A DNA stretch of 64,000 nt from an uncultured Eubacteriales bacterium (GCA_964422165.1 CAYQZX010000044.1:8105-72104); one strand, 5' to 3'; counted from the stretch's first letter, positions 10,020-29,834 are shown. Translations and numbers: made by a program. The notes: a model not told the origin generated them from the letters alone.

Positions 10020-10129
10020 TAATCACTAGCCCCTGATAAAGTTGAAGAAAGGCGGAGAGATTGAAAGAGGCCCTGGCCCACAGCTTAAAGCAGCAAAATA
10101 GGCGTGAAAAAACCGATGGTTAGCTGCTG

Positions 10130-11167: not shown

Positions 11168-11478
11168 TTTTCTTTATTCTCCATTCTGCTCTCGTGGCCT
11201 AATTAATAATAGGAACGCCCGAAAGGGTAGTCAACATCAAAATTAAATTATACCTCAGGATTGGGAAAAAGGGAGGAAGGAAAGCAGAGAATTCCTAGTT
11301 CCCGAATGTCGATTCGCCTGTCATTTGACTAGGCGGGAAAATCTATTTTGAGCAAAACTCATCAGTTTCAGTACAGGTGAATGCCTATGCCGCCAGGCTT
11401 ATAAATTTTTTCTTTATTCTGGTTCAATTTTTGTATATTTTAAGAAAAGGATGAAAAGCCAGGAGGAACGGGCTTAAA

Positions 11479-12885: not shown

Positions 12886-12913
12886 TGGACAATTGGAATA
12901 TAGTGGTATATAA
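12886..12913 (+). promoter_or_regulatory. Putative sigma70-like promoter (TGGACA-N16-TATAAT) for the GntR-type regulator gene
   Basis: Both hexamers are close to consensus with 16-bp spacing. The -10 element lies about 42 bp upstream of the ATG at 12956. Confidence 0.3.
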
Positions 12914-12955
12914 TGGTCCATAACGGTATATATATAAAATATAGAGAGGTTTAAT

Positions 12956-13945
12956 ATGGATTTGAAATTATCAATTGATAAGAACAGTCCAGTTCCTGCT
13001 TACCGTCAGCTGGTCAAGCAAATTACCTCACTGATTAGTGAAGGGAAGCTTAAGCCCGGGGATAAGCTCCCCACCGAAAGGGAACTGGCCACGCTTCTAA
13101 AAATTGCCAGGGGTACGGTTAAGAAGGCTTACGAATTATTATCAAAAGATAGAATTATTGAAACTACTCAGGGCCGGGGCACTTTTGTTTCCTCAGTTCA
13201 AGACATTATCCCGACCGGCCGAAAAGAAAAAGCCCAGAAGCTGGTAGACAACCTGCTTGAAGAATTGAGAAAGATGAATTTTTCCTTCCAGGAAATCAGA
13301 GCCTTTATAGAACTTTCTATTATTCAGAAAGAAGAAAAACTGGAAAATTTTAATGTGGCGGTTATAGACTGCAACCCGGAAAGCTTAGCCATTTTTGAAA
13401 GGCAGTTAACCTTTTTGAAACATGTCCGGGTAGCCAGGTTTCTTCTGGATGAAGTGGTGGCTGACCCTGAAGCCCAAAAGCGGCTCAAACCCTTTGACCT
13501 GATTTTAACCACCAGTACCCACTACAGTGAGTTACTGGGCAAACTTCCAAACCTGCGAGATAGACTTATCCAGGTAGCTGTCTCACCGAGTCAGGAAACC
13601 ATCATTGAAATGGCCAGTCTCAGTCCGGTTCAGAGAATTGGTGTAATCTGTGAAAGTGAGAATTTTTTGAATAGGGTAGTCTCCAGGTTAAAAAATCTGG
13701 GTCTGGTAAAAGGAAGTGTTCCTTGTCTTTTTATGAAAGATGAAGATGAATTACCCGAATTTCTGGAAAAGGTGGATGTAGTTTTAGTTCCTCCCGGGTA
13801 TCAGCTGCAGAGGAAAAAAGCCAACCTATCAGCAGTTCAGGCATTTACTGAAAGAGGCGGGAAAATTATTGCCTTTGATTATCAGATTGAAAGAGGCTCG
13901 TTGCTTTACGTTGAAGAAAGGATCAGCCAGCTCCTGAACCCCTGA
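12956..13945 (+). CDS. GntR-family transcriptional regulator with a large C-terminal effector domain
   Basis: N-terminal winged HTH (PAYRQLVKQITSLISEGKLKPGDKLPTERELATLLKIARGTVKKAYELL). RBS AGAGAGG lies 7 nt upstream of the start. It sits immediately upstream of, and co-directional with, the glutamate mutase operon. Confidence 0.7.
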   Translation: MDLKLSIDKNSPVPAYRQLVKQITSLISEGKLKPGDKLPTERELATLLKIARGTVKKAYELLSKDRIIETTQGRGTFVSSVQDIIPTGRKEKAQKLVDNLLEELRKMNFSFQEIRAFIELSIIQKEEKLENFNVAVIDCNPESLAIFERQLTFLKHVRVARFLLDEVVADPEAQKRLKPFDLILTTSTHYSELLGKLPNLRDRLIQVAVSPSQETIIEMASLSPVQRIGVICESENFLNRVVSRLKNLGLVKGSVPCLFMKDEDELPEFLEKVDVVLVPPGYQLQRKKANLSAVQAFTERGGKIIAFDYQIERGSLLYVEERISQLLNP

Positions 13946-13981: not shown

Positions 13982-14034
13982 ACCCGAGAGATTCTTTAAG
14001 GATGTAAGAATTGGAACAAGCTGAGGTTATACCA

Positions 14035-14529
14035 ATGAAAGCCTGTGAAAGTAAAAATGAAAAACACACCATAATCCTGGGAGTAATTGGGTCTGATTGC
14101 CATTCGGTGGGGAATAAAATCCTGGAGCTTTTCTTCACCGCTGAAGGCTTCAAGGTGGTCAATCTCGGAGTAATGGTTTCCCAGCAGGAATTTGTAGATG
14201 CGGCGATTGAGACCAACGCCAAAGCTATCCTGGTCTCTTCACTATACGGGCATGGCGAGATTGACTGCCAGGGTTTTAGAGATTTGTGTCTGGAGAAAGG
14301 TCTTGACCCGATTGTTCTCTATGTTGGTGGCAATCTGGTTGTGGGAAAAACACCTTTTGCTGTGGTTGAAGAGAAGTTCAAGAAGATGGGCTTTGACCGG
14401 GTTTTTTCGCCTGATGTTGATCTTAAGAAGGTAGCTGAACTCTTGAGGCAGGATATTGAGGAAAAATTCGGGTCGGTCAGAAAGCCAGAGACGGCAGAAA
14501 AAAATCAGGAGAAAAAAAGTAACAAGTGA
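14035..14529 (+). CDS. glmS: Glutamate mutase sigma (B12-binding) subunit; methylaspartate mutase S chain
   Basis: TIILGVIGSDCHSVGNKIL...AILVSSLYGHGEIDCQGF...LYVGGNLVVGK...MGFDRVF is nearly collinear with clostridial MutS/GlmS, including the DxHxxG cobalamin-binding motif. The ORF track offers an ATG at 14011, but GAGG sits 8 nt before the ATG at 14035. Confidence 0.85.
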   Translation: MKACESKNEKHTIILGVIGSDCHSVGNKILELFFTAEGFKVVNLGVMVSQQEFVDAAIETNAKAILVSSLYGHGEIDCQGFRDLCLEKGLDPIVLYVGGNLVVGKTPFAVVEEKFKKMGFDRVFSPDVDLKKVAELLRQDIEEKFGSVRKPETAEKNQEKKSNK

Positions 14530-14548
14530 CCAGCTGAATATTTCAGCC

Positions 14549-15952
14549 ATGAAAACAATAATCAGCATTGATATCGGTTCCACCTGGACCAAAGGAGGTC
14601 TTTTTGTCCTCTCACCTTCAGGGCTGAAGCTTAAGAGCAAATATTCCACTCCTACAACTCAGAATAATCTGATTCAGGGTTTTAACGAAGTGCTTAAGGG
14701 CCTTACTGGCCAGGATATAAATGGTGCACTGGCCGGTCTCAATGATTCAACCGAAGTTTTCTTTTCTTCTTCGGCCAAGGGCGGTCTGAAAATTGCTGCC
14801 ATCGGGCTGGTTCCTGACCTGACTCTTCAATTAGCCAGACTGGCGGCCATGTCAGCCGGGGGCAAAGTAGTTGGGAGCTTTGCTTTTACTCTGACCAGGC
14901 AGGATGTAGAAGCCCTGGAGAGGCTTCAGCCGGATATCATTCTCTTCAGCGGGGGAACCGATGGTGGTAATACCCGCTATGTTCTGGATAATGCCCGGCG
15001 GCTGGCCAGTTCAGGTTTTAGCTGTCCGGTGGTCTATGCTGGCAACAGGGCAGTGGCCGATGAAGTAGTTGAAGTCCTGAAAAATAAAGAGGTCATCTTA
15101 ACCGAAAACCTGATGCCAGAGGTTGGTCAGGTAAACATTGAACCGGCCAGGGAGAAAATCAGAGAAATTTTCTTGAAAAGGATCGTTCAAGGCCGGGGAT
15201 TATCTGAACTGGTTGAAATTTTCGGCACTCAGCCCCGACCAACTCCTCTGGCTGTTTTCGAGTTGATACAGGCCATACCCAGGTTCAATCCAGACTGGTC
15301 TGACCTGGCGGCCATAGATATAGGGGGAGCTACCACGGATTTTTATTCCAACACCGAATCTTACCTGGAAACTGATTCGGTAATCTTAAAAGGGATTCGT
15401 GAACCAAGAGTAAAAAGGACAGTGGAAGGGGACTTAGGAATGCGAGTGTCAGCTTGTTCTTTGCTGGAAGCGGGAAAACCCTACCTTGAAGCTCGACTGA
15501 TAAGTCTGGGCCTGTCGCTGGAAGCGATGGAAAGATTTGTTGAAAAAATTTCTGTTGATAATGATTACCTACCAGAAACTGAAGAGGAAATCTGGCTGGA
15601 CCGGATTCTGGCAGAGACCTGCGTCTATTACTCTGCTCTGAGACATGCTGGCGGCTGGAGAGAAACATATACTCCCCAGGGCAAAGTTTACATTCAGACC
15701 GGAAAGGATTTAAGGGCAGTTAAGGCGGTGGTGGGAAGTGGCGGTTTTCTCTCGGCCGAAAATTCGGCTGAAGTATTGCGCTTGCCTCTGGAAAGACTTG
15801 CCTTTTATGGAGATGAGAGAAAGCTTTTGCCGGAAAAACCATCTTTCTTTCGGGATAAAGATTATCTTTTTCCTCTTCTGGGAAATCTGGTCGAAAAATA
15901 TCCTCAAGATGCGGCTATTCTGGCCGTGGCTTCACTTGAAAAATTAGGTTGA
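14549..15952 (+). CDS. glmL: Glutamate mutase-associated protein GlmL/MutL (ASKHA-fold chaperone/reactivase-like)
   Basis: N-terminal IISIDIGSTWTKG actin-like ATPase motif, a length of about 467 aa, and position between the S and E subunits as in clostridial glm operons. The track ORF extends upstream to 14456 and overlaps glmS; the ATG at 14549 just after the glmS stop is preferred. Confidence 0.7.
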   Translation: MKTIISIDIGSTWTKGGLFVLSPSGLKLKSKYSTPTTQNNLIQGFNEVLKGLTGQDINGALAGLNDSTEVFFSSSAKGGLKIAAIGLVPDLTLQLARLAAMSAGGKVVGSFAFTLTRQDVEALERLQPDIILFSGGTDGGNTRYVLDNARRLASSGFSCPVVYAGNRAVADEVVEVLKNKEVILTENLMPEVGQVNIEPAREKIREIFLKRIVQGRGLSELVEIFGTQPRPTPLAVFELIQAIPRFNPDWSDLAAIDIGGATTDFYSNTESYLETDSVILKGIREPRVKRTVEGDLGMRVSACSLLEAGKPYLEARLISLGLSLEAMERFVEKISVDNDYLPETEEEIWLDRILAETCVYYSALRHAGGWRETYTPQGKVYIQTGKDLRAVKAVVGSGGFLSAENSAEVLRLPLERLAFYGDERKLLPEKPSFFRDKDYLFPLLGNLVEKYPQDAAILAVASLEKLG

Positions 15953-15964
15953 GAGGTATAAAGC

Positions 15965-17413
15965 ATGATAAGAAACGAGAAATTGGACTTAAAGGAATTT
16001 TTTGAGATAAGGAAAGAAGTTCTCCAGAGCTGGCCTACGGGTCAAAAAGTATCTCTTGATGAGGGAATTAAATACCATCATACCCTGCCTGAAGAAAAAC
16101 GATTTGTCCTGGCAATGAAGAAGGCCCGGGAAGGGCGTAAAACTCTGCTCCAGCCCAGAGCTGGGGTAGCTTTGATTGAGGAACATATCAAGCTTCTCCG
16201 CTACCTAGAAACAGAGGGACAGGCTGACCTGCTGCCTACTACCATAGATGCCTATACCAGGCAGAATCGGTATGAAGAGGCGGAAAAAGGAATAGAAAAA
16301 TCAAAACAGGCAGGCACCTCGCTGTTGAATGGTTTTCCGGCAGTTAATTACGGGGTAGAAGGCTGCCGTCGGGTGGTAGAAAACCTCAGCCGTCCGCTGC
16401 AGGTACGCCACGGGACCCCTGACGCCCGGCTACTGGCAGAAGTAACCCTGGCGGCCGGGTTTACCAGTTTTGAAGGTGGCGGAATTTCCTACAACATACC
16501 TTATGCTAAAAGAGTCCCGGTGGAAAAATCTATCAGAGACTGGCAGTATGTGGACCGACTGGTGGGCCTTTATGAGGAAAATGGAGTGCAGATAAACCGT
16601 GAACCATTCGGACCCCTTACCGGAACTCTGGTGCCGCCCTGCATTTCTATTGCTGTGGGAATCATCGAAGGTCTTCTGGCCCTGAAACAGGGAGTAAAAT
16701 CTATTACCCTGGGTTACGGACAGGGAGGCAACATTATCCAGGATGTGGCGGCTATAAAGGCACTCCGGGAGCTGGCTGATGAATATTTCAGGCAGGAAGG
16801 GTTTGAAGATTTTGACCTGACCACAGTTTTTCATCAGTGGATGGGTGGATTTCCAGAAGATGAAGCCAAAGCCTTCGCGGTTATCGCCCTTGGAGCTATA
16901 GTGGCCAGATTTTCGGGGTCAGAAAAAGTTATTGTCAAATCTCCTCATGAAGCCATGGGCATTCCCACAAAAGAAGCTAATGCCCAGGGATTGAGAGCGA
17001 CCAGACAGGCTATCAGCCTGGTTGAAGACCAGGTTATATTTAAGCCCGAAGACCTCCAGGCAGAAGTTGATTTGATTAAAGAAGAAGTGCGCTGTTTGTT
17101 GAACGGAGTCTATCAGCTCGGGCAGGGAGATATAGCCGCAGGCACGGTGGCTGCTTTCCAGGCTGGTGTTCTGGACATACCTTTTGCTCCTTCCGTGTAT
17201 AACCACGGCAAAATAATCCCAATGCGGGATAATGAAGGTTTTATCAGGATTTTCAACAAAGGTAATCTGCCATTGACCGACGAGATTATTTCCTACCACC
17301 GCCAGAGGCTTCAGGAAAGAGCTAAAGCTGAGGGTCGGGTTATTTCCTTTGAAATGGTTACAGACGATATTTATGCCGTAAGCAAAGGCAAATTAGTAGG
17401 GAGGCCGAAGTGA
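15965..17413 (+). CDS. glmE: Glutamate mutase epsilon (catalytic) subunit; methylaspartate mutase E chain
   Basis: 482 aa whose N-terminus (DLKEFFEIRKEVLQSWPTGQKVSLDEGIKYH) resembles clostridial GlmE/MutE. TIM-barrel-like core with conserved glycine-rich blocks. Confidence 0.85.
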   Translation: MIRNEKLDLKEFFEIRKEVLQSWPTGQKVSLDEGIKYHHTLPEEKRFVLAMKKAREGRKTLLQPRAGVALIEEHIKLLRYLETEGQADLLPTTIDAYTRQNRYEEAEKGIEKSKQAGTSLLNGFPAVNYGVEGCRRVVENLSRPLQVRHGTPDARLLAEVTLAAGFTSFEGGGISYNIPYAKRVPVEKSIRDWQYVDRLVGLYEENGVQINREPFGPLTGTLVPPCISIAVGIIEGLLALKQGVKSITLGYGQGGNIIQDVAAIKALRELADEYFRQEGFEDFDLTTVFHQWMGGFPEDEAKAFAVIALGAIVARFSGSEKVIVKSPHEAMGIPTKEANAQGLRATRQAISLVEDQVIFKPEDLQAEVDLIKEEVRCLLNGVYQLGQGDIAAGTVAAFQAGVLDIPFAPSVYNHGKIIPMRDNEGFIRIFNKGNLPLTDEIISYHRQRLQERAKAEGRVISFEMVTDDIYAVSKGKLVGRPK

Positions 17414-18663
17414 AAATAAAAAGAGTGTTTTTCGTACCGGGTAAGTCAGCTTTCTTTTTTGACGACCAGAGAGCAATAAAGAAAGGAGCTAAGAGCGACG
17501 GTTTTGTTTATCAGGGCCGGCCTGTAACCAGGGGTTTTGAAAGTATCAGGATGGCTGGAGAGTGTATCTCTATCGTCCTGGAACTTGAAGACGGCCAGCA
17601 GGCAGTTGGGGATTGTGCAGCGGTTCAGTATTCCGGGGTGGGAGGCCGGGACCCGCTGTTTCTGGCAGCCCATTACTTGCCGTTTCTAAAACAGAATCTT
17701 CAACCACTGCTGGAAGGACTGGAAGTAGATTCCTTCAGGGGATTAGCAGAGAGATTTGAGCATCTGAAATTTGAAGGGAAAAGACTTCACACGGCCATCA
17801 GATACGGCCTGTCTCAGGCCTTGCTGGATGCCCGGGCCAGGGTCTCGAAAAAATTGAAATGTGAGGTCATTGCGGAAGAATATAATCTGACGCTGGTTCC
17901 TGAAAGAGTTAAGGTCTTTGGACAATCCGGAGATGACCGATATACTAATGCCGACAAAATGATTTTAAAACAGGTGGATGCTCTTCCCCATGCTCTGATC
18001 AACAATATTGAGGATAAACTGGGCTGGCAAGGGGAGAAGCTGAGAGAATACATTCGCTGGTTGGTTGATAGAATCATCAAACTAAGACCGCGCCCTGATT
18101 ACCGGCCCGACCTGCACATAGATGTTTATGGCACTATAGGGCTGATTTTTGAAGGAAACCTCACCCGGGTTGCTGATTACCTGGCCTCGCTGGAAAAAGA
18201 GGCCGGGGAGTTTAACCTCTACATAGAAGGGCCGGTGGATATGGAGGAGAAATACAGGCAGCTGGAAGCCCTGGCGGAAATTACCAGAAAACTTCAAACT
18301 CTGGGTTCCCGGGTTAAAATTGTGGCTGATGAGCACTGCAACACGATTGAAGACATCAAGGAGTTTGCCGAGGCTAAAGCCTCCCATATGATTCAGATTA
18401 AGACCCCTGATCTGGGTGGCATCCAGAACGTAGTAGAAAGCAACCTTTACTGTAAAGCTCATGGAATAGAAGCTTATCAGGGCGGCACCTGCAACGAAAC
18501 AGACATTTCGGCTATTGCCTGTGTTCATGTGGCTATGGCCACCCGCCCCGACAGAATGCTGGCTAAACCAGGCATGGGTTTTGACGAAGGTTTTATGATT
18601 GTGAATAATGAGATGGAAAGGATAATTGAGCTTTTAAAGATTAAACAAGGGGAGAAGATTTAG
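17410..18663 (+). CDS. mal: Methylaspartate ammonia-lyase (beta-methylaspartase)
   Basis: Near full-length collinearity with Clostridium tetanomorphum MAL: FFDDQRAIKKGA, GDCAAVQYSGVGGRDPLFLA, RLHTAIRYG, SGDDRYTNADKMI, IQIKTPDLGG, GGTCNETD, AKPGMGFDEG. The start overlaps the glmE stop (ATGA). Confidence 0.9.
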   Translation: MKIKRVFFVPGKSAFFFDDQRAIKKGAKSDGFVYQGRPVTRGFESIRMAGECISIVLELEDGQQAVGDCAAVQYSGVGGRDPLFLAAHYLPFLKQNLQPLLEGLEVDSFRGLAERFEHLKFEGKRLHTAIRYGLSQALLDARARVSKKLKCEVIAEEYNLTLVPERVKVFGQSGDDRYTNADKMILKQVDALPHALINNIEDKLGWQGEKLREYIRWLVDRIIKLRPRPDYRPDLHIDVYGTIGLIFEGNLTRVADYLASLEKEAGEFNLYIEGPVDMEEKYRQLEALAEITRKLQTLGSRVKIVADEHCNTIEDIKEFAEAKASHMIQIKTPDLGGIQNVVESNLYCKAHGIEAYQGGTCNETDISAIACVHVAMATRPDRMLAKPGMGFDEGFMIVNNEMERIIELLKIKQGEKI

Positions 18664-20043
18664 ATGAATAAATCGAAAGCCAGATCAAAGCTCGCTCCCT
18701 TTAAGATACTTTCAACCACGGCCATTCTGGGTTACGGTTTTCCAGAAAGCTCTTTTCAGAGAGGTTTGAGGAAAAAACCTGACCTGATTGCTGTTGATGG
18801 TGGTTCAACCGACCCAGGTCCCTACTATCTTGGGGCTGGCAAGTCATTTACCAGCAGAGCAGCAGTTAAAAGGGATTTAAGACTTATGATTAAAGCTGGA
18901 TTAGAGCATAATATCCCGGTTGTGGTGGGTACCGCCGGCGGCTCTGGAGCCAGACCTCATTTAGAATGGTGTTTGGAGATAGTGAGGGAGATTGCCCGGG
19001 AAGAAAATCTTCATTTCAAACTGGGGATTGCTTATGCCGATGTGGAAAAGGAAATGGTGCTGGAGGCGTTTAAACAGAAAAGAGTCAAACCGCTGGCTTT
19101 TGTTCCTGAACTTACCCCGGAAGTGGTGTTTGAGAGCGAGAATCTTGTAGCTCAGATGGGGATTGAACCTTTCATCAAATTACTTAATCAGGGATGCCAG
19201 GTGGTTATAGCCGGACGTTCCTATGACCCGGCAGTTTTTGCGGCTCTGCCCATCTCTCTGGGGTATGACCCTGGCCTGGCCCTGCACCTGGGCAAAATTC
19301 TGGAGTGTGCGGCCATTGCGGCCACTCCGGGTTCAGGCTCGGATTGTGCCCTCGGTATCCTGGAAGAGGATTCTTTTATCCTGGAAACTCTTTCGCCGGA
19401 ACGAAAATTCACACCGCAGTCAGCGGCTGCCCACACTCTTTATGAAAAATCAGACCCTTATGAACTGCCAGGGCCTGGTGGCCTGATCAACCTGAGAGGG
19501 TGCTCCTTTGAGGATATTGGCCAGGGGCGGGTTAGAGTTAGAGGAAGCCGATTTATACCGAGTGAAAATTACTGGGTTAAAATAGAAGGCGTTCGGATGA
19601 TTGGTTTCAGGTCCATAAGTATTGCTGGAGTGCGGGACCCGATCATGATAGAAAAGATAGATAAAATCCTGAAAGAGGTTGAACTGAAGGTCAGGGAAAT
19701 TATGGGTAAAGACGGGAAAAATGGCCAGATTTATTTTCATGTTTACGGAAAAAACGGAGTGATGGGCGAACTGGAGCCGGTAAAAAGAACCCTTTCTCAC
19801 GAGCTCGGGCTGGTTATTGAAACTATTGGAAAAACTCAGGAAGAGGCCGACAGCCTTCTGGCCCTGACTCGCTCAGCTCTTCTTCACTACGGTTATGAAG
19901 GCAGAATTGCCACTGCCGGCAACCTGGCCTTTCCTTTTTCGCCTTCTGATATTTCCATGGGAAAAGTCTATGAATTCTCTGTCTATCATCTGATGCAGGT
20001 TGACCGTCCGGACTTTTTCCTCAGCCGCGTAGAAGAATTGTGA
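18664..20043 (+). CDS. Uncharacterised protein, AtuA-like / DUF1446-like (assigned from memory of the family; needs an HMM check)
   Basis: 459 aa and soluble, with no catalytic motif I recognise. It starts 1 nt after the mal stop and overlaps the next small ORF by 4 nt. In many genomes AtuA/DUF1446 is paired with a small DUF4387 partner as seen here. Confidence 0.6.
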   Translation: MNKSKARSKLAPFKILSTTAILGYGFPESSFQRGLRKKPDLIAVDGGSTDPGPYYLGAGKSFTSRAAVKRDLRLMIKAGLEHNIPVVVGTAGGSGARPHLEWCLEIVREIAREENLHFKLGIAYADVEKEMVLEAFKQKRVKPLAFVPELTPEVVFESENLVAQMGIEPFIKLLNQGCQVVIAGRSYDPAVFAALPISLGYDPGLALHLGKILECAAIAATPGSGSDCALGILEEDSFILETLSPERKFTPQSAAAHTLYEKSDPYELPGPGGLINLRGCSFEDIGQGRVRVRGSRFIPSENYWVKIEGVRMIGFRSISIAGVRDPIMIEKIDKILKEVELKVREIMGKDGKNGQIYFHVYGKNGVMGELEPVKRTLSHELGLVIETIGKTQEEADSLLALTRSALLHYGYEGRIATAGNLAFPFSPSDISMGKVYEFSVYHLMQVDRPDFFLSRVEEL

Positions 20044-20054
20044 GGGGAAGAAAG

Positions 20055-20396
20055 ATGAGAGTAACAAAGCCAACAGCCGCAAAAAAGAAAAACAGCCTTT
20101 TGAAAGTGGCCCGGGTCATTCGTTCTAAAAATTCTGGACCTTTTGAGCTGACTCTTGATATTATGTTTAAGGAAAGGCGCTATTTCGAGCTATTCAAGAA
20201 GAAGAGGATAATAACTGCCAGAAAGATTGCCCGGCTCTATGGAATTCCCGAAAAAGAGGTTTTGAAGGTTGTCTACTTTGAACCAAGTCAGGCCATCAAG
20301 GTGACGTTGAAGAGAAGAATTCCCTCCGGTTCTCCTGGAGATACCGATGTATACGGAGCCCAGCAGCATGCGCCGCTACTTAGTTTGACTTTTTAG
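20055..20396 (+). CDS. Small basic protein, DUF4387-like partner of the preceding AtuA-like protein
   Basis: About 113 aa and Lys/Arg-rich. GAGGGG lies 7 nt before the ATG at 20055; the track start at 20040 is a GTG inside the stop of the upstream gene. Confidence 0.5.
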   Translation: MRVTKPTAAKKKNSLLKVARVIRSKNSGPFELTLDIMFKERRYFELFKKKRIITARKIARLYGIPEKEVLKVVYFEPSQAIKVTLKRRIPSGSPGDTDVYGAQQHAPLLSLTF

Positions 20397-20404
20397 GAGC
20401 TTAG

Positions 20405-21352
20405 ATGGACCCAAAACAGCTGTCCCGAGTGGATACTCTAATCTATGCCGTTTATTATGCACCACGGGGACGCTACCGGCTTTATATGGTAGCCAGCGAA
20501 ATTGCCAGGCGCTACCTCTCTCCTACCGATTATCTCATAGGAATAATAGGGGAAGAGGGTTCGGGTAAATCGACCTTGATTCGAGGTCTTTTCCCCGGGC
20601 TGGAACTTACCAATGAAGATGACGGGGTCAACCTCAGCCGGGCTCCGATTTATTCTTTTTCGCCAGAAGACTTTTTTTCCGGACACACTTTTCACCTTGA
20701 TGTCAGATATGAACTGGCCTTCAAGCAGAAATATAAAATTAAGGAGGCCATAAGAAAGGCAGTGGAACACAAACGTCGGGTGGTGGTGGAGCACTTTGAT
20801 TTGATTTATGACATCCTGGGAATGAATGCTCAGGTTCTGATAGGAATCGGGGAAGAGATAATTGTGGCCAGGCCGACGGTTTTTGGCCCCTTTCCCCAAA
20901 ACATAAAAGCCATAGTTGACCGGACGATTAAATACCGCTTGATGGCCCATTCAGCCGAAGACATCACCACTTACATTCTGGAAAGAGACTACAACTATAA
21001 ATCTCGTTCACCTCTGATTCATTCTGACATCCGCCACGGGTTTGTCATCAACTTTCCGGAAAGACCGGAGATTGACCTGGATGAACTTGAAGCCAAAGTC
21101 CAGGCCGTGATAGATGCCGATGTTCCCATCAGTCAGTGCGGAGAAGACACAATTTGCATAGGTGAGTTCAAGATATACTGCACCGGTCCACGGACTCATG
21201 TCAACCGCTCGGGAGAAATAGAAAATTTCCGTTTATTGAAAGAATTCAGGCTTAATCCCCTAACCAGCGAATTTATGCTCATAGGGATGGTCGGGCATAA
21301 AACCATTGCCGGCTTTGAAGATATCATTGAATATATGGACATTGAAGACTGA
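20405..21352 (+). CDS. P-loop NTPase/kinase-like protein of unknown function
   Basis: 315 aa with Walker A GIIGEEGSGKSTL and a putative Walker B RRVVVEHFD. It starts 9 nt after the previous gene and is embedded in the operon. Confidence 0.6.
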   Translation: MDPKQLSRVDTLIYAVYYAPRGRYRLYMVASEIARRYLSPTDYLIGIIGEEGSGKSTLIRGLFPGLELTNEDDGVNLSRAPIYSFSPEDFFSGHTFHLDVRYELAFKQKYKIKEAIRKAVEHKRRVVVEHFDLIYDILGMNAQVLIGIGEEIIVARPTVFGPFPQNIKAIVDRTIKYRLMAHSAEDITTYILERDYNYKSRSPLIHSDIRHGFVINFPERPEIDLDELEAKVQAVIDADVPISQCGEDTICIGEFKIYCTGPRTHVNRSGEIENFRLLKEFRLNPLTSEFMLIGMVGHKTIAGFEDIIEYMDIED

Positions 21353-21379: not shown

Positions 21380-22978
21380 ATGAAGTTTGTCTATTCTCCA
21401 GTTTTGCCTCTGGAAAAAGACCGGACGAAATTTGAAAGATTAACCTCAGAGCTGGTCAGAGAAGTAAAATGTCGGGGCAAAAAGTTTCTGGAAGTAAAAC
21501 CCGAGGCGCTCCGCTTATTGGCCCGGGAAGCTTTTGCCCGGGTTAATTTTTATTTCCGCTCATCTCATCTGGAAAACCTGGCTTCTATCCTGGACGACCC
21601 AGAGGCTTCAGAGAACGATAAATTTGTGGCTGCTATGCTTTTGAAGAACGCTGTCATCTCAGCCGAGGGCTTGCTGCCGTTGTGTCAGGACACAGGAACG
21701 GCTAACATCATTGGTTACCGGGGAGAGCGGGTTCTGACCGGAGTAGAAGATGCCAGGTATCTAAGCCGGGGTGTTTTTGAAGCCTACACCCGTCTGAATC
21801 TCAGAGCTTCTCAGAATGTGCCGCTAAACATTCTGGATGAAAAAAATACCGGAAATAATTTACCGGCTCAGATTGAGATATTCAGCACCAGAGGCAGTGA
21901 GTATCATTTTTATTTCATAGCCAAGGGTGGAGGCTCGTCTAATAAGACGGCACTCTATCAGGAGAACAAATCGCTTCTTAAGGATGAGCAAACCCTGCTG
22001 GATTTTATCAGAGAAAAGATTAAAGCCATAGGAGTGGCCGCCTGTCCCCCTTACCGATTGGCTGTAGTTATCGGCGGTCTTTCACCAGAGATGAACCTGA
22101 AAACCGTTAAATTAGCTTCGGCCGGTTTTCTGGATAATCTGGTAACCAGACCGACCGGACTGCCTCACGGCTATCGGGACCTGGAATGGGAAAAAAGAGT
22201 TCTCCAGGTAGCGAGGGCGACTGGGTTGGGAGCTCAATTTGGCGGAGTGGCCCTGGCCCTGGAAGCCAGAGTCATAAGGTTGCCGCGCCACGGCGGTTCT
22301 CTACCGGTGGGAATTGGTCTGAGCTGCAATGCTGACCGGAACCTAAAAGCCGTAATTAACCGCCACGGAATTTTTGTCGAAAAGCTGGATATTAATCCGG
22401 TTCGGTTTCTAAGGAAAATAGAATCGCTGAAGATTGAGAAAGTTCCAGCGATAAACCTTGACCAGCCAATTGAATCTCTTGTGGCTGAACTCTCAAGACA
22501 TCCGGTTGGCACCAGGCTGAGCCTTTCGGGCACCTTGATTGTGGCCCGAGACCTGGCCCACCTCAGGCTGAAAAAGCTGCTGGAAAGGGGCGAACCATTG
22601 CCTGATTATTTCATAAATCATCCGGTTTATTATGCCGGTCCAGCCCGAACACCTCAAGGCTGGCCCACAGGTAGCTTTGGTCCAACTTCAGCTCAGAGAA
22701 TGGATAGTTATGTGGAAGATTTTATGAAAGCCGGTGCTTCCCGGGTTATGCTGGGGAAAGGTAATCGCTCTGATAAAGTGGTAGAAGCCTGTCGGAAATA
22801 TCGAGGATTTTACCTTGGAACCATAGGTGGAGCTGCCGCTCTGGTGGCCAGAGAGCACATTGTTTCCTCTGAATTAGTTGATTTTGAAGACCTGGGTATG
22901 GAAGCTATCAGAAAGATTGTGGTGAAAGATTTACCGGCCTTTATCATAATTGATGATAAAGGAAACAGGCTATATTAA
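21380..22978 (+). CDS. Class I (Fe-S) fumarate hydratase, fused alpha/beta type; probable mesaconase of the methylaspartate pathway
   Basis: LCQDTGTA cluster-ligand motif, IAKGGGSSNK, and a C-terminal beta-domain with GPARTPQGWPTGSFGPTSAQRMD. 532 aa, as for FumA/FumB-type single-chain enzymes. Confidence 0.85.
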   Translation: MKFVYSPVLPLEKDRTKFERLTSELVREVKCRGKKFLEVKPEALRLLAREAFARVNFYFRSSHLENLASILDDPEASENDKFVAAMLLKNAVISAEGLLPLCQDTGTANIIGYRGERVLTGVEDARYLSRGVFEAYTRLNLRASQNVPLNILDEKNTGNNLPAQIEIFSTRGSEYHFYFIAKGGGSSNKTALYQENKSLLKDEQTLLDFIREKIKAIGVAACPPYRLAVVIGGLSPEMNLKTVKLASAGFLDNLVTRPTGLPHGYRDLEWEKRVLQVARATGLGAQFGGVALALEARVIRLPRHGGSLPVGIGLSCNADRNLKAVINRHGIFVEKLDINPVRFLRKIESLKIEKVPAINLDQPIESLVAELSRHPVGTRLSLSGTLIVARDLAHLRLKKLLERGEPLPDYFINHPVYYAGPARTPQGWPTGSFGPTSAQRMDSYVEDFMKAGASRVMLGKGNRSDKVVEACRKYRGFYLGTIGGAAALVAREHIVSSELVDFEDLGMEAIRKIVVKDLPAFIIIDDKGNRLY

Positions 22979-23446: not shown

Positions 23447-25471
23447 ATGAAAAGATATGTCTTGAGGCTTTTGTTCGTTTTCGGGTTAGGGATTTTTCTA
23501 ATCCAGGCGGTAGCGGCCCAGTCCAGACATTATAGCCTGGTTACCGGGGAGATAGATTTCTACTATGGGTTTATTAGTTACCTTCCTGAAGACAGGGGAG
23601 GAAAACTGCCCGAAATAATCCGCCCGGGGCTGGCCAGGCCGGAAATTGCCAGCTTGAATTTTCCGCTGGGACCAGGAGATACGATTGTTACCTACGACCA
23701 GCCCTGTGAGGTCCAATTTGATAGCGGAACGGTCTTTCGTCTTGGTCCGGAAAGCCGGCTTAGAATAGAAACCATTATGGCCCAAAGTCTGAGTTCAGAG
23801 GGACAGTTTTCAAACCTTTTCCTGGAGAAAGGTCAGCTCTTTCTTATGTACACCGCTTATAATCAATGGGAGATATTTCAGTTGCTGACAGCTACCAGTG
23901 CCATTAAGATGAAAAACAAAACGGTTCTTCTGATGTCAGTCAATCCTAATGGTGAAACAAAAGTGGCTGTCAAAGAAGGGAAGATTGACCTCCTTTACGG
24001 ACCGGCTACTGAAAAGTTGCAATCAGCTAAAGCCAAAAAAGGAGACAGCCTGTTAGTCACTGCTGACCATAAACTGAGCATAAAGCCCGATCTCTTTGAC
24101 CTGGCTGGTTTTGAAGCCTGGAGCGTAGAGTTGAATAAAAATTTTCTGGACTTACATAAAGGGGTAACGCCCCTGCCTAAACCAATTCAGAAATTGCCTC
24201 CTGCGGTATTTTATTTTGCTCAATTCTATGGCAACAGGTATGGAGAATGGGTCTGGGATGATTACTACGGCTACGTCTGGCGCCCCTTTTATAACGACTA
24301 TTATCCATGGGGCAGCTGGGCCCCTTATTATTACGGACGCTGGACTTACCTGAACGGCCAGCTTTTCTGGGTACCTGAGGAGCCCTGGGGATGGGTACCT
24401 TACCATCTTGGTATCTGGCAGTGGGATAAGAAGAAAGGCTGGATCTGGATACCGGGCTCGGCATTTGCTCCGGCCTGGGCTGTTTGGGATTTCTATTTTG
24501 GTTATTATTCCTGGCGGCCCTGGAGCCTATTTGATTGGCTGGGTTATGGCTATTACGGATATTATGAAATTCATGGACCAGGTAACTCCCTTCCAGGTCA
24601 GATCGGGCAACCTGCCGAAAGAAATATTCTGAGCAAAATAAACAAGGACCAGCTCAAAAAACCGACTGGCTCTTCTATACCCTTGCCAGAAAGCTATAAA
24701 AAAGTAGTGGCCAGTTTTGCCAGAGCTTTGAAAAATAAGGACCCGGAAGCCCTGAGCCGGGTAGGAGTGAAGCCACCAGAACCGATAGTAGTTAAAGCTG
24801 AGGACCTGGGAGTAATAAGGGTTCAAGAAAAAAGAATTCCCTGGAGTGAATTCAGCAGACTTATGAATAGCCACAAACAGACTGGCGGAGAACCAGAAGC
24901 AAAGAGGGGAAACATTCCATCCCGCAATCAGGCTGTTTTTCATTTTATGCGACATAAAAATCAGGCTGGTTTAGAGGCATTTGAGGAAAAAAGCTATACT
25001 CCCAACCTCAATCAGGAACCTGAAAGACAAGGGGGCACCCCGCCCGCCGGCTCTCAGTTAATAAAAAGGGGGCAATCGGAAGCAGTTCCAGAAAAAACAG
25101 GCCTGAGGCTCCAGGTTAACACTGAGGCTCGCTTCAGAGATTGGAATCCTGACCTAAAAGTAGCCAGGGAATTAAAAATCAGGATTTTCTATGACAGCCT
25201 CAGCAACCAGATTGTTGCTCCCCAGCTCGGGCTTACTTCCAGAGAAGCCAGGGGAATGGGACTGAGGATTACTCCCTATGGAGTGGTTCAGAGGGTTCGT
25301 TACCGGGAAGATGGTGGTGGCTACGTTCTGAATTCTTCATCTTCTGCTACCTCGGGCAGTAATGATTCCAGTGCCACTGCCACTGCCACCCCAACCAATA
25401 ACTCTGGCTCATCCGGGAATTCGGGCAAGTCTGGAGGTAATGCTTCAAATGCTGGCCGGACTAAGCATTGA
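23447..25471 (+). CDS. Secreted FecR-domain-like protein with an aromatic (W/Y/G)-rich repeat region and a Ser/Gly/Asn/Thr-rich tail
   Basis: Signal peptide, then FecR-like beta region (DSGTVFRLGPESRLRIE), then a dense W/Y repeat segment (YPWGSWAPYYYGRW, PWGWVPYHLGIWQW, GWIWIPG), then a low-complexity C-terminus. Confidence 0.65.
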   Translation: MKRYVLRLLFVFGLGIFLIQAVAAQSRHYSLVTGEIDFYYGFISYLPEDRGGKLPEIIRPGLARPEIASLNFPLGPGDTIVTYDQPCEVQFDSGTVFRLGPESRLRIETIMAQSLSSEGQFSNLFLEKGQLFLMYTAYNQWEIFQLLTATSAIKMKNKTVLLMSVNPNGETKVAVKEGKIDLLYGPATEKLQSAKAKKGDSLLVTADHKLSIKPDLFDLAGFEAWSVELNKNFLDLHKGVTPLPKPIQKLPPAVFYFAQFYGNRYGEWVWDDYYGYVWRPFYNDYYPWGSWAPYYYGRWTYLNGQLFWVPEEPWGWVPYHLGIWQWDKKKGWIWIPGSAFAPAWAVWDFYFGYYSWRPWSLFDWLGYGYYGYYEIHGPGNSLPGQIGQPAERNILSKINKDQLKKPTGSSIPLPESYKKVVASFARALKNKDPEALSRVGVKPPEPIVVKAEDLGVIRVQEKRIPWSEFSRLMNSHKQTGGEPEAKRGNIPSRNQAVFHFMRHKNQAGLEAFEEKSYTPNLNQEPERQGGTPPAGSQLIKRGQSEAVPEKTGLRLQVNTEARFRDWNPDLKVARELKIRIFYDSLSNQIVAPQLGLTSREARGMGLRITPYGVVQRVRYREDGGGYVLNSSSSATSGSNDSSATATATPTNNSGSSGNSGKSGGNASNAGRTKH

Positions 25472-27413: not shown

Positions 27414-29834
27414 TTAAAAATTCAGCTTTTTATTGCGGACTGGATAGTTAACCAGAGCTTCTCCATCCCAGTATCTTATTATGTCTTTTAGACTTCTCAG
27501 TTCGGTCAAAGCATGTGGGGGCACAAGGCCTGAAATTACCAATTCTTTTGTCTTTTCGATAAGGGAATCGGCTGGTCTTGATAGCAAGGGGTTAAGGTTA
27601 AAGTCAAAGCTGTATTTCATTCCGCAGTCCATCTCGCTTGAATATTCTGAAGTTGTGACGTCTATAGTCCGGTCCTCCCGAGAGATTTCGACCAGGGTTA
27701 CATAATTTCGAATGCCCATGACCTTATTGATAGTAGTTCTGGGAAGCAGCAGGTAATACTCCTGCTTCCCAGGTGGCAAATCTTTGAACTGAAACTCGGG
27801 ATTACCACTTGACGGCGAACAACCGATTATGGCTCGCGGGTCAAGAACCAGAAGACAGGCTGATTGGAAATCGTTATTAGTCCCGGCCAGAATTATTTCT
27901 TTCCAGCCGTCCCCATCCAGGTCTTCTATGACCAGAGTATCCCGACCGAGGCGGCCGGCCTGCCAGTACTCTCCAAGAATTTCCCCGCGGCTGTTTAAGA
28001 GGGTTATCTGAGTAGGATACCAGGTAGTATGATTAGCTATTATCAGCACCTTTTTCTCAGGTGAATTCTGGTTGAAAGCGGCCACCTCAAACCTATTAAT
28101 AATGAAGTGATTGGAAAATTCATCGGTCAGGGTCTGGATTCTTTTTCCTGGTCTGAAGCTCCACTGAACCTCTCCTTTCTTGTTAAAGCAAAAGATTTCT
28201 GATCTCAATTTTTCATCACTTTTGTAGTTACCGCTAACCAGAATTTCTGGATTTCCATCTCCATCCAGGTCTTCAAATTTCTGTTGCAGACTTTCAGCTA
28301 CTATGGGTTTGGAGGGTCTGTATACCCAGAGAAGCTGCCTTTCCTGATTCCTGGCAAAAAGATTACCGTTATGTAATTCTAAAACTACTGGATGCCGTAT
28401 TTTCCAGAAATGATAAGAGGGGTTTCGGTTTATTAAAATAAAAGAGGAGATTACAAGTCCGGCTGCCAGCAAGCCCAGAAACCATTTTCTCATGGTGAAT
28501 TTCTTTTTTCTGAATAGGTAACGGGCATATGAATCTATTTTTTTTAAGGTGATTCGACTGTCATTAAGGACATCTTCCAGGGTTCTGGCGGGGATTAATT
28601 CCAGCTTTCTCCAGGGGTGTCTGGACAGCAGATTGAACAGAACGCCCCTGGCTTCTTTAAGATTGGATGCAGGAATTACCAGATACTTAATTCCTGAATA
28701 AAAGGCAGCCCTGATTTTCAGCCCCAGGCCCTCAGCTTCAATAGGTTTAATTTCTCCAGTAAGATCAATTTTCCCGGTGAAGGCTGCCTCTCTGGAAAAA
28801 CTGAGATGATAGCGGCTTTCGGCTGAAAGGAGCTTCTGGGCAATAGCTATAAGTGCCAGGGGGAGCCCCAGGCTTTCTCCGGAGTATCTGAAATTTTTTT
28901 CAGAAAAAGAAAAAATCAGGGTACAGGGAGGCAAAGTCAAACGGAAGTGTTTGTTTATAGAAAAGTCAGCGGCTTCCATGGCGTCAGTGGCACTGAGGTA
29001 AATTTCTTCCTTACTGAAAGCCGGAAGGTTGGAAAACCTGACCAGGTTCTGGCTCTCAACGGCAGTCGATTGACGGCAGCGACTTTCTAAAGAAATTATT
29101 CTGGCTCGTTCAGCGGATTTCAAAAGGCCAGAGCTTTCTACCAGGCTGCAGTAAATACTATCGTCACGCCAGCCCGAAAAGCTCTTCCATTTTTCCATAA
29201 CTAAATCAAGATCCTGGCCCAGTCCAGCAAACTTCTTGAGGTGGTCGAACAATACCTGGGCCATCAGTTCGTTACTCTGAGCATTCTGCCTTATTTCAGG
29301 GATCGCAGGTGTTAATTCTTTTTTAAGTTCTTTAAAATCCTCTTCACTGGAGAAGCTACTTGACTTATTATTTATTTTCTGTCTTGAAAGAAGAGCGGTC
29401 AGTCCTTCCTCCAGCTCTCCCAGGTATAGATGATTGAGGGCCAGATAGAAATAAAGATTATTCTGGGATTCCCTGAAAAGGTTTTCTTCCAGTTGTCCGA
29501 CAAACCTGGACTGCAGATATCGGGATGCGCTTAAATAAATCTTTAATTCTTCAGGTGGGCAGCAATCTGGCTGAAAATTGGCAGTTAGATACAGGAATAA
29601 TCCTGCCAGCTGAAGGTGGAATGAGTAAGTAAGATTTGCCGGCAGAGGCCTGGTTGATTCCAGAAATTCAGCTATTAACCAAACTTTCTCTCGATCATTA
29701 AGGGCTGAGGAAATGTTAGAGAGGGTCTGATTGAAAAGATTTTCCATATGCAGGGGAGAAATACTGCCTGGGCTGTGGTCTTGATTATTCATATAAATTG
29801 GCCTGAACCGGAATAACTTTTTCTGGCAGCTCAA
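27414..29834 (-). CDS. Membrane-anchored Lon-protease-domain (S16-like) protein with an extracytoplasmic FG-GAP/calcium-binding-repeat region
   Basis: The central region aligns to the Lon proteolytic domain, with the Ser-Lys dyad retained (SGESLGLPLALIAIA ... AFTGKIDLTGEIKPIEAEGLGLKIRAAFYSGIKYLVIP) and no Walker A/AAA+ module. One TM helix (WFLGLLAAGLVISSFILI) with positive-inside residues before it. The C-terminal part has DLDGDGNPEIL / DLDGDGWKEIIL FG-GAP-like motifs. The start is ambiguous: 29834, or the ATG at 29792 just downstream of the upstream gene stop. Confidence 0.7.
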   Translation of the reverse strand: MSCQKKLFRFRPIYMNNQDHSPGSISPLHMENLFNQTLSNISSALNDREKVWLIAEFLESTRPLPANLTYSFHLQLAGLFLYLTANFQPDCCPPEELKIYLSASRYLQSRFVGQLEENLFRESQNNLYFYLALNHLYLGELEEGLTALLSRQKINNKSSSFSSEEDFKELKKELTPAIPEIRQNAQSNELMAQVLFDHLKKFAGLGQDLDLVMEKWKSFSGWRDDSIYCSLVESSGLLKSAERARIISLESRCRQSTAVESQNLVRFSNLPAFSKEEIYLSATDAMEAADFSINKHFRLTLPPCTLIFSFSEKNFRYSGESLGLPLALIAIAQKLLSAESRYHLSFSREAAFTGKIDLTGEIKPIEAEGLGLKIRAAFYSGIKYLVIPASNLKEARGVLFNLLSRHPWRKLELIPARTLEDVLNDSRITLKKIDSYARYLFRKKKFTMRKWFLGLLAAGLVISSFILINRNPSYHFWKIRHPVVLELHNGNLFARNQERQLLWVYRPSKPIVAESLQQKFEDLDGDGNPEILVSGNYKSDEKLRSEIFCFNKKGEVQWSFRPGKRIQTLTDEFSNHFIINRFEVAAFNQNSPEKKVLIIANHTTWYPTQITLLNSRGEILGEYWQAGRLGRDTLVIEDLDGDGWKEIILAGTNNDFQSACLLVLDPRAIIGCSPSSGNPEFQFKDLPPGKQEYYLLLPRTTINKVMGIRNYVTLVEISREDRTIDVTTSEYSSEMDCGMKYSFDFNLNPLLSRPADSLIEKTKELVISGLVPPHALTELRSLKDIIRYWDGEALVNYPVRNKKLNF

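Follow-up and report, generated by a model that had tools for sequence, protein, structure and literature searches.

A probable CmlAB-type citramalate lyase and a putative accessory P-loop protein in a methylaspartate operon of an uncultured Eubacteriales bacterium

Judging from sequence, the last step of a glutamate-fermenting methylaspartate operon in an uncultured Eubacteriales bacterium is already explained by CmlAB, a citramalate lyase of two subunits whose structure was recently solved. The operon lies in a window of 64,000 nucleotides (the whole stretch of DNA that was analysed), where three genes are embedded between the methylaspartate ammonia-lyase gene and a class I fumarase gene. 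The first two of these, at 18664-20043 and 20055-20396, very probably encode CmlA and CmlB, and a likely full explanation of the three genes is a CmlAB lyase pair plus an accessory P-loop protein of 315 aa. An earlier note on this DNA had suggested that the three genes together supply the missing citramalate-processing step. For the AtuA-like/DUF4387 pair, the CmlA/CmlB orthologues, this was borne out; the part assigned to the P-loop protein was not.

The cluster is a single tightly packed operon in the order gntR-glmS-glmL-glmE-mal, the three genes, and the class I fumarase gene, with the following features:

12886-12914, plus strand: candidate promoter, the best sigma-70-like match (TGGACA-17-TATAAT, 11/12 matches), upstream of gntR; a consensus match only
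12956-13945, plus strand: GntR-family regulator, first gene of the cluster (Pfam GntR, E 1.4e-17)
14011-14529, plus strand: glmS, glutamate (methylaspartate) mutase B12-binding subunit S (NCBIfam NF002612, 215 bits, cut-off 110; TIGR01501)
14456-15952, plus strand: glmL (MutL), glutamate mutase accessory protein (Pfam MutL from residue 35, E 8e-136)
15965-17413, plus strand: glmE, glutamate mutase subunit E (TIGR01503, 769 bits)
17410-18663, plus strand: mal, methylaspartate ammonia-lyase (TIGR01502, 550 bits; Pfam MAAL_N and MAAL_C)
18664-20043, plus strand: cmlA, predicted large subunit of CmlAB citramalate lyase, AtuA/DUF1446 family, 459 aa
20055-20396, plus strand: cmlB, predicted small subunit of citramalate lyase, DUF4387, 113 aa (Pfam DUF4387; phmmer against 9erq_B)
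20405-21352, plus strand: 315-aa P-loop protein of an orphan family (Walker A; TsaE/YjeE-like and AlaX/ThrRS/AlaRS-editing-like halves)
21380-22978, plus strand: fused class I (Fe-S) fumarase, presumed mesaconase (Pfam Fumerase and Fumerase_C)

The three ORFs were confirmed at the positions and on the strand first given for them, and the flanking genes had been correctly named as mal and the mesaconase. The GntR regulator has the same position in many related loci. The glmL product scores 478.8 bits with NCBIfam accessory_GlmL (cut-off 475), and its gene likely starts at ATG 14549, 19 nt past the glmS stop, rather than at the listed TTG 14456. mal begins with GTG and shares 4 nt with the end of glmE. 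The mal stop codon TAG ends at 18663 and cmlA begins with the ATG at 18664, leaving a gap of 0 nt where 1 nt had been counted. The 4-nt overlap described between cmlA and the next gene is present if cmlB starts at the alternative GTG at 20040; the better start is an in-frame ATG at 20055, which has GAGGGG ahead of it and lies 11 nt from cmlA, and independent gene callers choose it (113 aa). The gap between cmlB and the P-loop gene is 8 nt instead of 9, and the 27 nt between the P-loop gene and the fumarase gene were correct. Within the operon, no promoter-like or terminator-like signals were found above the level of shuffled sequence (terminators, 15 found versus 13.8 expected). The three genes do share one operon with the methylaspartate pathway, as the note had proposed. 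The neighbourhood also recurs, with the same gene order in about 120 loci of other genomes and metagenomes, and the arrangement is therefore far beyond chance.

The Pfam families proposed for the pair were recovered as well. The product of 18664-20043 matches AtuA (PF07287) with 59.2 bits against a cut-off of 22.8, a partial match with its best stretch at residues 70-218, and that of 20040/20055-20396 matches DUF4387 (PF14330) with 132 bits. CmlA aligns over its full length with citramalate lyase subunit A of PDB 9ERQ/9EVF (61% identity, with long identical blocks), and CmlB matches 9erq_B by phmmer (E 1.2e-28, 49% identity over 102 residues). In these entries, released 2025-10-22, CmlA/CmlB are named citramalate lyase and carry bound AMPPNP and citramalate. 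According to the description in a preprint, CmlAB cleaves citramalate directly to pyruvate and acetate, and CmlAB of Raoultella planticola was used in E. coli (bioRxiv 10.64898/2026.01.16.699985). The reaction and the role of ATP are taken from the PDB entry titles and the preprint description. Given the released structure, and an association of DUF1446 with mal that was noted in 2015 (PMC4682846), it no longer holds that the pair lacks a function in any organism. The proposal that the pair matures or repairs B12 or Fe-S enzymes is rejected in favor of the CmlAB assignment.

Consistent with this assignment, the genes are organized as in Raoultella-type CmlAB, which pairs a large AtuA-family subunit (about 456 aa) with a small DUF4387 subunit (about 105 aa), their genes lying side by side directly after mal in a glmS-glmL-glmE-mal operon. 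The design and position are the same here, the DUF4387 subunit being a separate gene immediately downstream of cmlA, and the context of glutamate mutase, methylaspartate ammonia-lyase and mesaconase follows the same order in Enterobacteriaceae. In E. coli O157:H7 and other Enterobacteriaceae the cluster comprises glmS-glmL-glmE-mal-DUF1446(-DUF4387) and a class I fumarase/mesaconase (Kronen and Berg 2015, PMC4682846). The DUF1446 gene downstream of mal was noted at that time in Dictyoglomus too, and what becomes of citramalate in enterobacteria with this cluster was unexplained as of 2015 (PMC4682846). Unlike the source group of the crystallised enzyme, the host here is not an enterobacterium but resembles Candidatus Aminicenantes/Saccharicenans, and cmlB is followed by the P-loop gene and fumarase instead of gltP-glsA-fumD-cobA. 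The enterobacterial cluster has gltP, glsA and cobA as extra genes and is without the P-loop gene and the GntR regulator of the operon described here.

We consider it highly improbable that the pair is a paralogue with another hydroxy-acid activity or with the role of AtuA in terpene catabolism. PF07287 takes its name from AtuA, a protein of acyclic terpene catabolism; AtuA of the Pseudomonas atu (acyclic terpene utilisation) cluster is a member, and pairing with DUF4387 is a trait of the family; to our knowledge, the function of terpene AtuA is not known. In addition, some loci have a cmlAB-like pair but none of glm, mal and fum (L030, L038, L043, L059, L073, L074 and L079), and the subfamily may therefore serve more than one pathway; the neighbours of these stand-alone pairs are unrelated genes that give no hint of a substrate. 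Against a paralogue, however, stand the full-length identity of 61% and 49% to the crystallised citramalate lyase, the two-gene architecture and operon position shared with Enterobacteriaceae, and a pathway that needs exactly the citramalate step in a neighbourhood where no other lyase was found. No atu genes are present in the context, and because the AtuA match is partial, at 59 bits, the subfamily appears remote from terpene AtuA.

The same step can be carried out by CitDEF, a lyase of three subunits that include an acyl carrier protein with a CoA-like prosthetic group needing acetylation. CitDEF has no homology to CmlAB, which has two subunits and a bound adenine nucleotide as opposed to this acyl-carrier-protein machinery. 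In Clostridium tetanomorphum-type clusters CitDEF (with CitC/X/G) serves this step in the same kind of operon (PMC4682846). Genes for a CitE/CitF/CitD-type lyase and its activation were not found in the operon studied here, and a scan of 30 window ORFs, each 200 aa or longer, found no CitE/CitF-type lyase either.

Taken together, the pathway would begin with conversion of glutamate to 3-methylaspartate by GlmS/GlmE with GlmL, followed by formation of mesaconate by Mal. The fumarase, which scores 639 bits with the NCBIfam class I fumarate hydratase model, under its equivalog cut-off, presumably hydrates mesaconate to (S)-citramalate, like FumD of E. coli O157:H7 (PMC4682846). CmlA and CmlB would then split (S)-citramalate into pyruvate and acetate and need none of the acyl-carrier-protein/CoA machinery that a CitDEF-type lyase uses. 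The link to ATP lies in CmlA itself, not in the P-loop protein, as seen in the AMPPNP-bound 9ERQ. We infer that ATP may act in CmlAB as a bound cofactor or activator with no net consumption, a transient acyl-phosphate being one possibility for its role. Residues 120-233 of CmlA are weakly similar to the ATP-grasp enzyme D-Ala-D-Ala ligase (E 2.6e-4).

The third gene product had been described as having no obvious family. This is true insofar as the 315-aa protein reaches no Pfam or NCBIfam cut-off, but its predicted fold has relatives in TsaE and in AlaX/ThrRS editing domains. The N-terminal half resembles a TsaE/YjeE-like P-loop ATPase, with a Walker A motif (GEEGSGKST, G49-T57), HTFH at 94-97 and EHFDL at 129-133, and the C-terminal half resembles the editing domains of AlaX, ThrRS and AlaRS, with MAHSAED at 180-186, HSD at 206-208 and CTGPRTHV at 259-266. 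All of these motifs are invariant across 26 homologues of about 65% identity, the Walker A, HFD and His/Cys residues among them. In the predicted structure (pLDDT 77.9), both a TsaE fold with Walker A and an editing-domain fold were recovered: all 12 Foldseek hits at E <= 1e-3 are AlaX/AlaRS or TsaE/YjeE, and two fold-comparison programs agree on TsaE and AlaX/ThrRS editing domains. Sequence profiles give matches below cut-off to Pfam TsaE (PF02367; 19 bits versus 26.6) and tRNA_SAD (PF07973; 15.2 bits versus 24), and such weak matches are seen in 23 (best E 1.4e-3) and 24 (best E 6.4e-4) of the 26 family members, respectively. By hhalign, E. coli TsaE aligned in the Walker A region and nowhere else, and E. 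coli ThrRS N2 gave no significant sequence match. A PDB profile search returned ABC-type Walker A matches only; the LSGGQ signature of ABC transporters is absent.

The protein also differs from both sets of fold relatives. Compared with TsaE/YjeE, the t6A tRNA modification ATPase, it has large insertions, an extra conserved N-terminal YYAPRGR motif and a second, fused domain; there is no tsaB or tsaD in the operon, and the context of the P-loop gene is always a cml/glm cluster. Canonical editing domains carry HxxxH and CxxxH motifs. Here H182-x-x-E185-D186 and C259-x5-H265 are invariant and the spacing is changed (HSAED; CTGxRTH), an ATPase is fused, and no tRNA-synthetase context is seen. The His/Asp/Cys/His motif is possibly a metal site. 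The family is very small and compact, with 314 hits in 1.84 billion representative proteins, and we found no convincing natural fusions, including none to CmlA or CmlB; one candidate fusion, P0332 (577 aa), looks chimeric.

In 108 of 118 loci (92%), the P-loop gene is the one immediately after cmlB. It is found in one locus that consists of cmlA-cmlB-Ploop only, with no glm or mal within 10 kb (L102), and in the sampled loci it never occurs beside glm/mal without cmlAB. Tentatively, and with some doubt, we read the 315-aa protein as a conserved accessory protein that is specific to CmlAB-type operons and may act on CmlAB. It could use ATP to reset, activate or clean the nucleotide or acyl state of the lyase, in a manner likened to TsaE resetting TsaBD. 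As a counterpoint, no P-loop protein accompanied the Raoultella lyase in its crystallisation or in its use in E. coli. Further points against this reading are L133, which has a Ploop-fumarase pair only, the position of the gene beside glmS or a fumarase subunit gene in L058, L078 and L063, and the lack of fusions to CmlA or CmlB. The gene is missing from all 15 Enterobacteriaceae loci, from four spirochaete loci and from L011, and since whole lineages do without it, the protein appears helpful rather than essential. That it would be needed for the citramalate step is contradicted by the enterobacterial cmlAB clusters, which lack it. With low confidence, our best guess is an accessory factor that uses ATP and that the CmlAB-type pathway can dispense with. 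A mirror-tree analysis of 14 dereplicated loci singled out no partner (all correlations 0.92-0.97, partial correlations noisy).

In the spirochaete loci without the P-loop gene, a ThrRS-N2-like and uridine-kinase-like protein is encoded nearby. The spirochaete ORFs after cmlB are not diverged P-loop homologues (no relation by hhalign), nor is a spirochaete 552-aa protein, in which Walker A alone aligned.

Apart from the lyase, the protein could service another operon enzyme, by inserting or repairing the [4Fe-4S] cluster of the mesaconase or by acting with GlmL on the B12-dependent glutamate mutase. Restricted in this way to the P-loop protein alone, the earlier idea of B12 or Fe-S enzyme maturation or repair seems unlikely to us. 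In its favor, 74 of 112 loci have a fumarase gene directly downstream of the P-loop gene, and L133 consists of a Ploop-fumarase pair only; elsewhere the P-loop gene follows the fumarase alpha subunit gene (L063) or precedes glmS (L058 and L078), it is missing from cmlAB pairs without glm, mal and fum, and the conserved His and Cys residues could bind metal. However, no fumarase is within reach in 35 loci with the P-loop gene, and the gene is present where glmL is missing (L050, L069, L077 and L092). Enterobacterial clusters have FumD and glutamate mutase without it, its tie to cmlB (92%) is tighter than that to any other gene, and the protein has no likeness to metallochaperone GTPases such as MeaB or HypB (HypB, Foldseek E 0.13). 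The presence of cobA in enterobacterial clusters had raised the idea of a substitute for CobA, the B12 adenosyltransferase; this was rejected because Oscillospiraceae loci carry the P-loop gene and cobA side by side.

It is less likely still that the protein works on small molecules, as a kinase or as an enzyme that handles nucleotides; its substrate might for example be a side product or the adenine nucleotide used by CmlA. CmlA does bind an adenine nucleotide, the P-loop domain is TsaE-like, and identity across phyla of about 59-65%, as high as that of the catalytic subunits, is typical of an enzyme; the spirochaete loci without the gene have the uridine-kinase-like P-loop protein with a ThrRS-like domain. 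Yet no kinase-family cut-off is reached, the context points to no candidate substrate, and the gene is dispensable in several lineages.

Similarly, we find little reason to expect a trans-editing factor that hydrolyses tRNA mischarged with 3-methylaspartate, its ATPase serving regulation or tRNA handling, and rate this as very unlikely. 3-Methylaspartate is an analogue of aspartate, threonine and valine, and the premise would be that it builds up in cells with this pathway. The weak tRNA_SAD matches in 24 of 26 members and the invariant H...(E/D) and C...H residues, like those of HxxxH/CxxxH, are in line with such a role, as are the occurrence of the gene in 48 of 53 non-enterobacterial loci with glm/mal versus none of the six stand-alone cmlAB pairs that could be scored, and the ThrRS-N2-like protein of the spirochaete loci. 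Enterobacteria, however, form the same intermediate without a P-loop gene, the family was seen in cmlAB-type clusters only among the sampled loci, and L102 has the gene and cmlAB without glm/mal. The HxxED and CxxxxxH spacing is unlike that of true editing domains, there is no significant match to E. coli ThrRS N2, and we know of no trans-editing factor that needs an ATPase.

There is a small chance that the 315-aa protein is the first of a new functional class, combining a TsaE-type ATPase with an editing-type hydrolase as a reset or repair subunit of CmlAB or as a 3-methylaspartate proofreader. If so, a fermentation operon found in at least ten phyla would have taken over tRNA-type machinery, and a proofreader would shield translation from the 3-methylaspartate that accumulates in glutamate fermentation. 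The preferred role in servicing CmlAB is directly testable with the existing recombinant lyase, and may bear on the mechanism of an ATP-binding lyase and on the use of this enzyme in engineered pathways. In most non-enterobacterial operons CmlAB is accompanied by this conserved, family-restricted ATPase/editing-like protein.

About 70 of 80 genome loci, drawn from many phyla, keep the order glmS-glmL-glmE-mal-cmlA-cmlB. Beyond enterobacteria, the CmlAB-type methylaspartate pathway is widespread, extending to uncultured anaerobes such as Aminicenantes, Riflebacteria, spirochaetes, Planctomycetota, Lentisphaerota and Bacillota; our literature search found no report of it in Aminicenantes or Riflebacteria. 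On this basis the name citramalate lyase CmlAB can replace DUF1446/DUF4387 for the pair in this operon and in hundreds of genomes. These include E. coli: the operon is present in 1126 of 5426 complete genomes, and there RefSeq still labels the pair 'AtuA family' and 'DUF4387'.

In the window, a single row of co-directional, closely packed genes runs from gntR through a fused class I fumarase gene, and the identities of the flanking genes were all upheld by Pfam and NCBIfam.

12956-13945, + strand: GntR regulator (Pfam/NCBIfam)
14011-14529, + strand: glmS (Pfam/NCBIfam)
14456-15952 (ORF; likely start 14549), + strand: glmL (Pfam/NCBIfam)
15965-17413, + strand: glmE (Pfam/NCBIfam)
17410-18663, + strand: mal (Pfam/NCBIfam)
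18664-20043, + strand: cmlA, 459 aa (partial AtuA match, 59 bits; Pfam)
20040/20055-20396, + strand: cmlB (DUF4387 match, 132 bits; Pfam)
20405-21352, + strand: 315-aa P-loop gene (Walker A motif)
21380-22978, + strand: fused class I fumarase (Pfam/NCBIfam)

The earlier note described the three ORFs between mal and the fumarase gene as translationally coupled to the flanking pathway genes, and their place in one operon stands, as does the 27-nt gap between the P-loop gene and the fumarase gene. The other junctions needed small revisions: read from the sequence, mal and cmlA are 0 nt apart, cmlB and the P-loop gene are separated by 8 nt, and cmlA and cmlB either overlap by 4 nt (GTG start at 20040) or lie 11 nt apart (ATG start at 20055). 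The ATG is more likely the start of cmlB, judging from a GAGGGG ribosome-binding site and the choice of independent gene callers. Promoter and terminator signals in the operon interior did not rise above shuffled-sequence level, and the top promoter-like site sits upstream of gntR. The gene that follows the operon (23447-25471, + strand) codes for 674 aa, with FecR and DUF6600 domains and a low-complexity tail rich in Ser, Gly and Asn; it also adjoins the operon in near-identical metagenome contigs. Pfam gave no family at E <= 1e-5 for five large window ORFs (370-806 aa): 27414-29834 (-), 36738-37916 (-), 47984-49987 (-), 60610-62214 (+) and 30492-31604 (-).

A sequence search of solved structures matched the 459-aa protein to chain A of PDB entries 9ERQ and 9EVF (E 1e-179) and the DUF4387 protein to chain B (E 1.2e-28), chains that the depositors name 'Citramalate lyase, subunit A (cmlA)' and 'subunit B (cmlB)'. 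Both subunits are homologous over their full length, and the fold, the gene architecture and the operon context likewise agree with CmlAB; the two genes most likely encode CmlA and CmlB, a citramalate lyase predicted from sequence. The AtuA/DUF1446 and DUF4387 assignments of the earlier note are borne out by the Pfam matches, and its first hypothesis, that these genes supply the missing citramalate-processing step, was correct in substance. Its main claim to novelty, that the pair had no assigned function, falls because the structure and name of CmlAB are already public; the window proteins are new orthologues of that enzyme from an Aminicenantes-like host. The core of the finding is explained by the CmlAB lyase, with the observation confirmed and the interpretation supported in part. 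A DUF1446 gene 3' of mal was recorded in E. coli O157:H7 and Dictyoglomus in 2015, when the fate of citramalate in those bacteria was still unexplained (PMC4682846). In RefSeq (September 2026) the two genes still appear as 'acyclic terpene utilization AtuA family protein' (cmlA) and 'DUF4387 domain-containing protein' (cmlB).

Established pathway knowledge and PMC4682846 suggest that the operon most likely encodes the full methylaspartate route. GlmSE, with accessory GlmL, would convert glutamate to 3-methylaspartate and Mal would convert this to mesaconate, from which the class I fumarase, by analogy with FumD, would form (S)-citramalate for cleavage by CmlAB to pyruvate and acetate. None of the 30 scanned window ORFs of at least 200 aa is a CitE/F-type gene, and the place of the classical CitDEF-type lyase in the pathway would be taken here by CmlAB. 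According to a PDB title, CmlA binds an ATP analogue and substrate together, and its residues 120-233 show a weak likeness to the ATP-grasp enzyme D-Ala-D-Ala ligase (E 2.6e-4). ATP would be a bound cofactor or activator of CmlAB rather than consumed, since free acetate is the reported product and one ATP per turnover is hardly affordable for a low-yield fermentation; a transient acyl-phosphate may enable C-C cleavage.

The earlier note asked whether the DUF1446/DUF4387 pair recurs beside glm and mal in other genomes, and it does. When window proteins were mapped onto the 80 loci from a CmlA-alignment scan (one genome per species), approximately 70 carried glmS-glmL-glmE-mal-cmlA-cmlB, in hosts including Aminicenantes, Riflebacteria, spirochaetes, Planctomycetota, Lentisphaerota, Bacillota, several proteobacterial groups and Enterobacteriaceae. 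Of the complete E. coli genomes, 1126 of 5426 contain the cluster (for example NZ_CP096837.1 3216697-3220649; also L055:9989-11673), and in Klebsiella the series goes on with gltP-glsA-fumD-cobA. Variants L050, L069, L077 and L092 lack glmL and retain glmS, glmE, mal, cmlAB and the P-loop gene. Seven loci (L030, L038, L043, L059, L073, L074 and L079) carry cmlAB alone amid unrelated genes; glm, mal, fumarase and P-loop genes are all absent from the DNA within reach. Their cmlA (approximately 10001-11350 in full-length loci) is 58-64% identical to window CmlA, and their hosts are Desulfobacterales, Syntrophobacter, Syntrophales, Pseudomonadales and other proteobacteria.

The remaining interest lies in the 315-aa protein, a conserved TsaE-like/editing-like companion of CmlAB outside enterobacteria. 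The earlier note saw no obvious family for it, and indeed no Pfam or NCBIfam cut-off was reached despite the Walker A motif; it does have relatives at the level of fold. Its AlphaFold model has two halves (pLDDT 77.9), and all 12 Foldseek matches at E <= 1e-3 were AlaX/AlaRS or TsaE/YjeE. Sub-cut-off Pfam matches to tRNA_SAD (24 of 26 members) and TsaE (23 of 26) were weak, and profiles compared directly with E. coli TsaE or ThrRS N2 aligned at Walker A alone or not at all; the modelled likeness is therefore one of fold, not of family membership, and the protein did not qualify as a TsaE, tRNA_SAD or ABC ATPase. Homologues are approximately 62-89% identical across phyla, under inconsistent names ('alanine-tRNA synthetase second additional domain-containing protein', 'TsaE', 'GTPase SAR1 family'), and 26 members share invariant N-terminal YYAPRG, Walker A GxEGxGKST, HTFH, RRVxxEHFD, MAHSAED, HSD and CTGxRTHV. 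Searching 1.84 billion representative proteins by profile gave just 314 matches, mostly fragments, with approximately six full-length 50%-identity clusters, indicating a very small family with no detectable paralogues; the literature searched held no description of it. With its P-loop, the protein could alternatively be a small-molecule kinase or nucleotide enzyme, and with its editing-like half a trans-editing enzyme against 3-methylaspartate mischarging. That it forms a new functional class, a TsaE-type ATPase joined to an editing-type hydrolase for lyase reset/repair or proofreading, seems rather unlikely.

The P-loop gene lies directly 3' of cmlB in 108 of 118 loci with enough upstream DNA, and fumarase lies directly 3' of it in 74 of 112. 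Counted over species loci anchored on cmlA, it occurs in 48 of 53 non-enterobacterial loci having mal, in none of 15 from Enterobacteriaceae and in none of six scorable cmlAB-only loci; none of the loci examined has it beside glm/mal without cmlAB. A mirror-tree analysis shows it evolving in step with the operon as a whole (r 0.92-0.97), and no single partner stands out. A maturation or repair factor for mesaconase or glutamate mutase is a further rival. The tightest link, to cmlB, and the confinement of the family to CmlAB-type clusters favour an ATP-dependent accessory factor of CmlAB, which we propose tentatively, as possible rather than probable. TsaE resets its partner complex TsaBD. By analogy, the 315-aa protein would act on the lyase, and its editing-like domain may recognise adenosine-linked or acyl species. 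This accessory role is weakened, however, by the crystallisation of Raoultella CmlAB and its use in E. coli with no such protein present, and by the absence of the P-loop gene from the stand-alone cmlAB pairs.

Gene order varies. At L102:8278-10906 a minimal cmlA-cmlB-P-loop unit may be mobile, given the adjoining YhgA-like transposase, and at L133:9890-12655 the P-loop and fumarase genes stand alone, with genes for a divergent histidine kinase and a sigma-54 response regulator upstream of them. The P-loop gene precedes glmS in L058 and L078 and follows the fumarase alpha subunit in L063. In Enterobacteriaceae, which lack it, cobA ends the cluster. In Oscillospiraceae (L067:12744-13262, L072:9801-10304 and L076:12789-13298) a cobA-type corrinoid adenosyltransferase gene, whose product is 33% identical to Klebsiella CobA, directly follows the P-loop gene; the presence of both rules out a simple CobA substitute. 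One spirochaete locus (L034:10569-12560) has a FadX-like CoA-transferase (663 aa) between cmlB and the P-loop gene. Spirochaete loci L070, L032, L044 and L052 lack the 315-aa gene and have three others after cmlB (L070:11685-15317). Two are conserved ORFs of 295 and 277 aa without Pfam/NCBIfam match; the third encodes a protein of 552 aa in which a region resembling ThrRS-N2 (TIGR00418 positions 3-130, E 1.8e-9) precedes a uridine-kinase-like P-loop domain, giving it both ingredients of the 315-aa protein in reversed order. In P0332 (577 aa), from the profile search, an unrelated stretch of approximately 460 aa precedes the C-terminal editing-like part of the P-loop family; this is probably an artefact of chimeric or frameshifted gene calling, not a genuine fusion.
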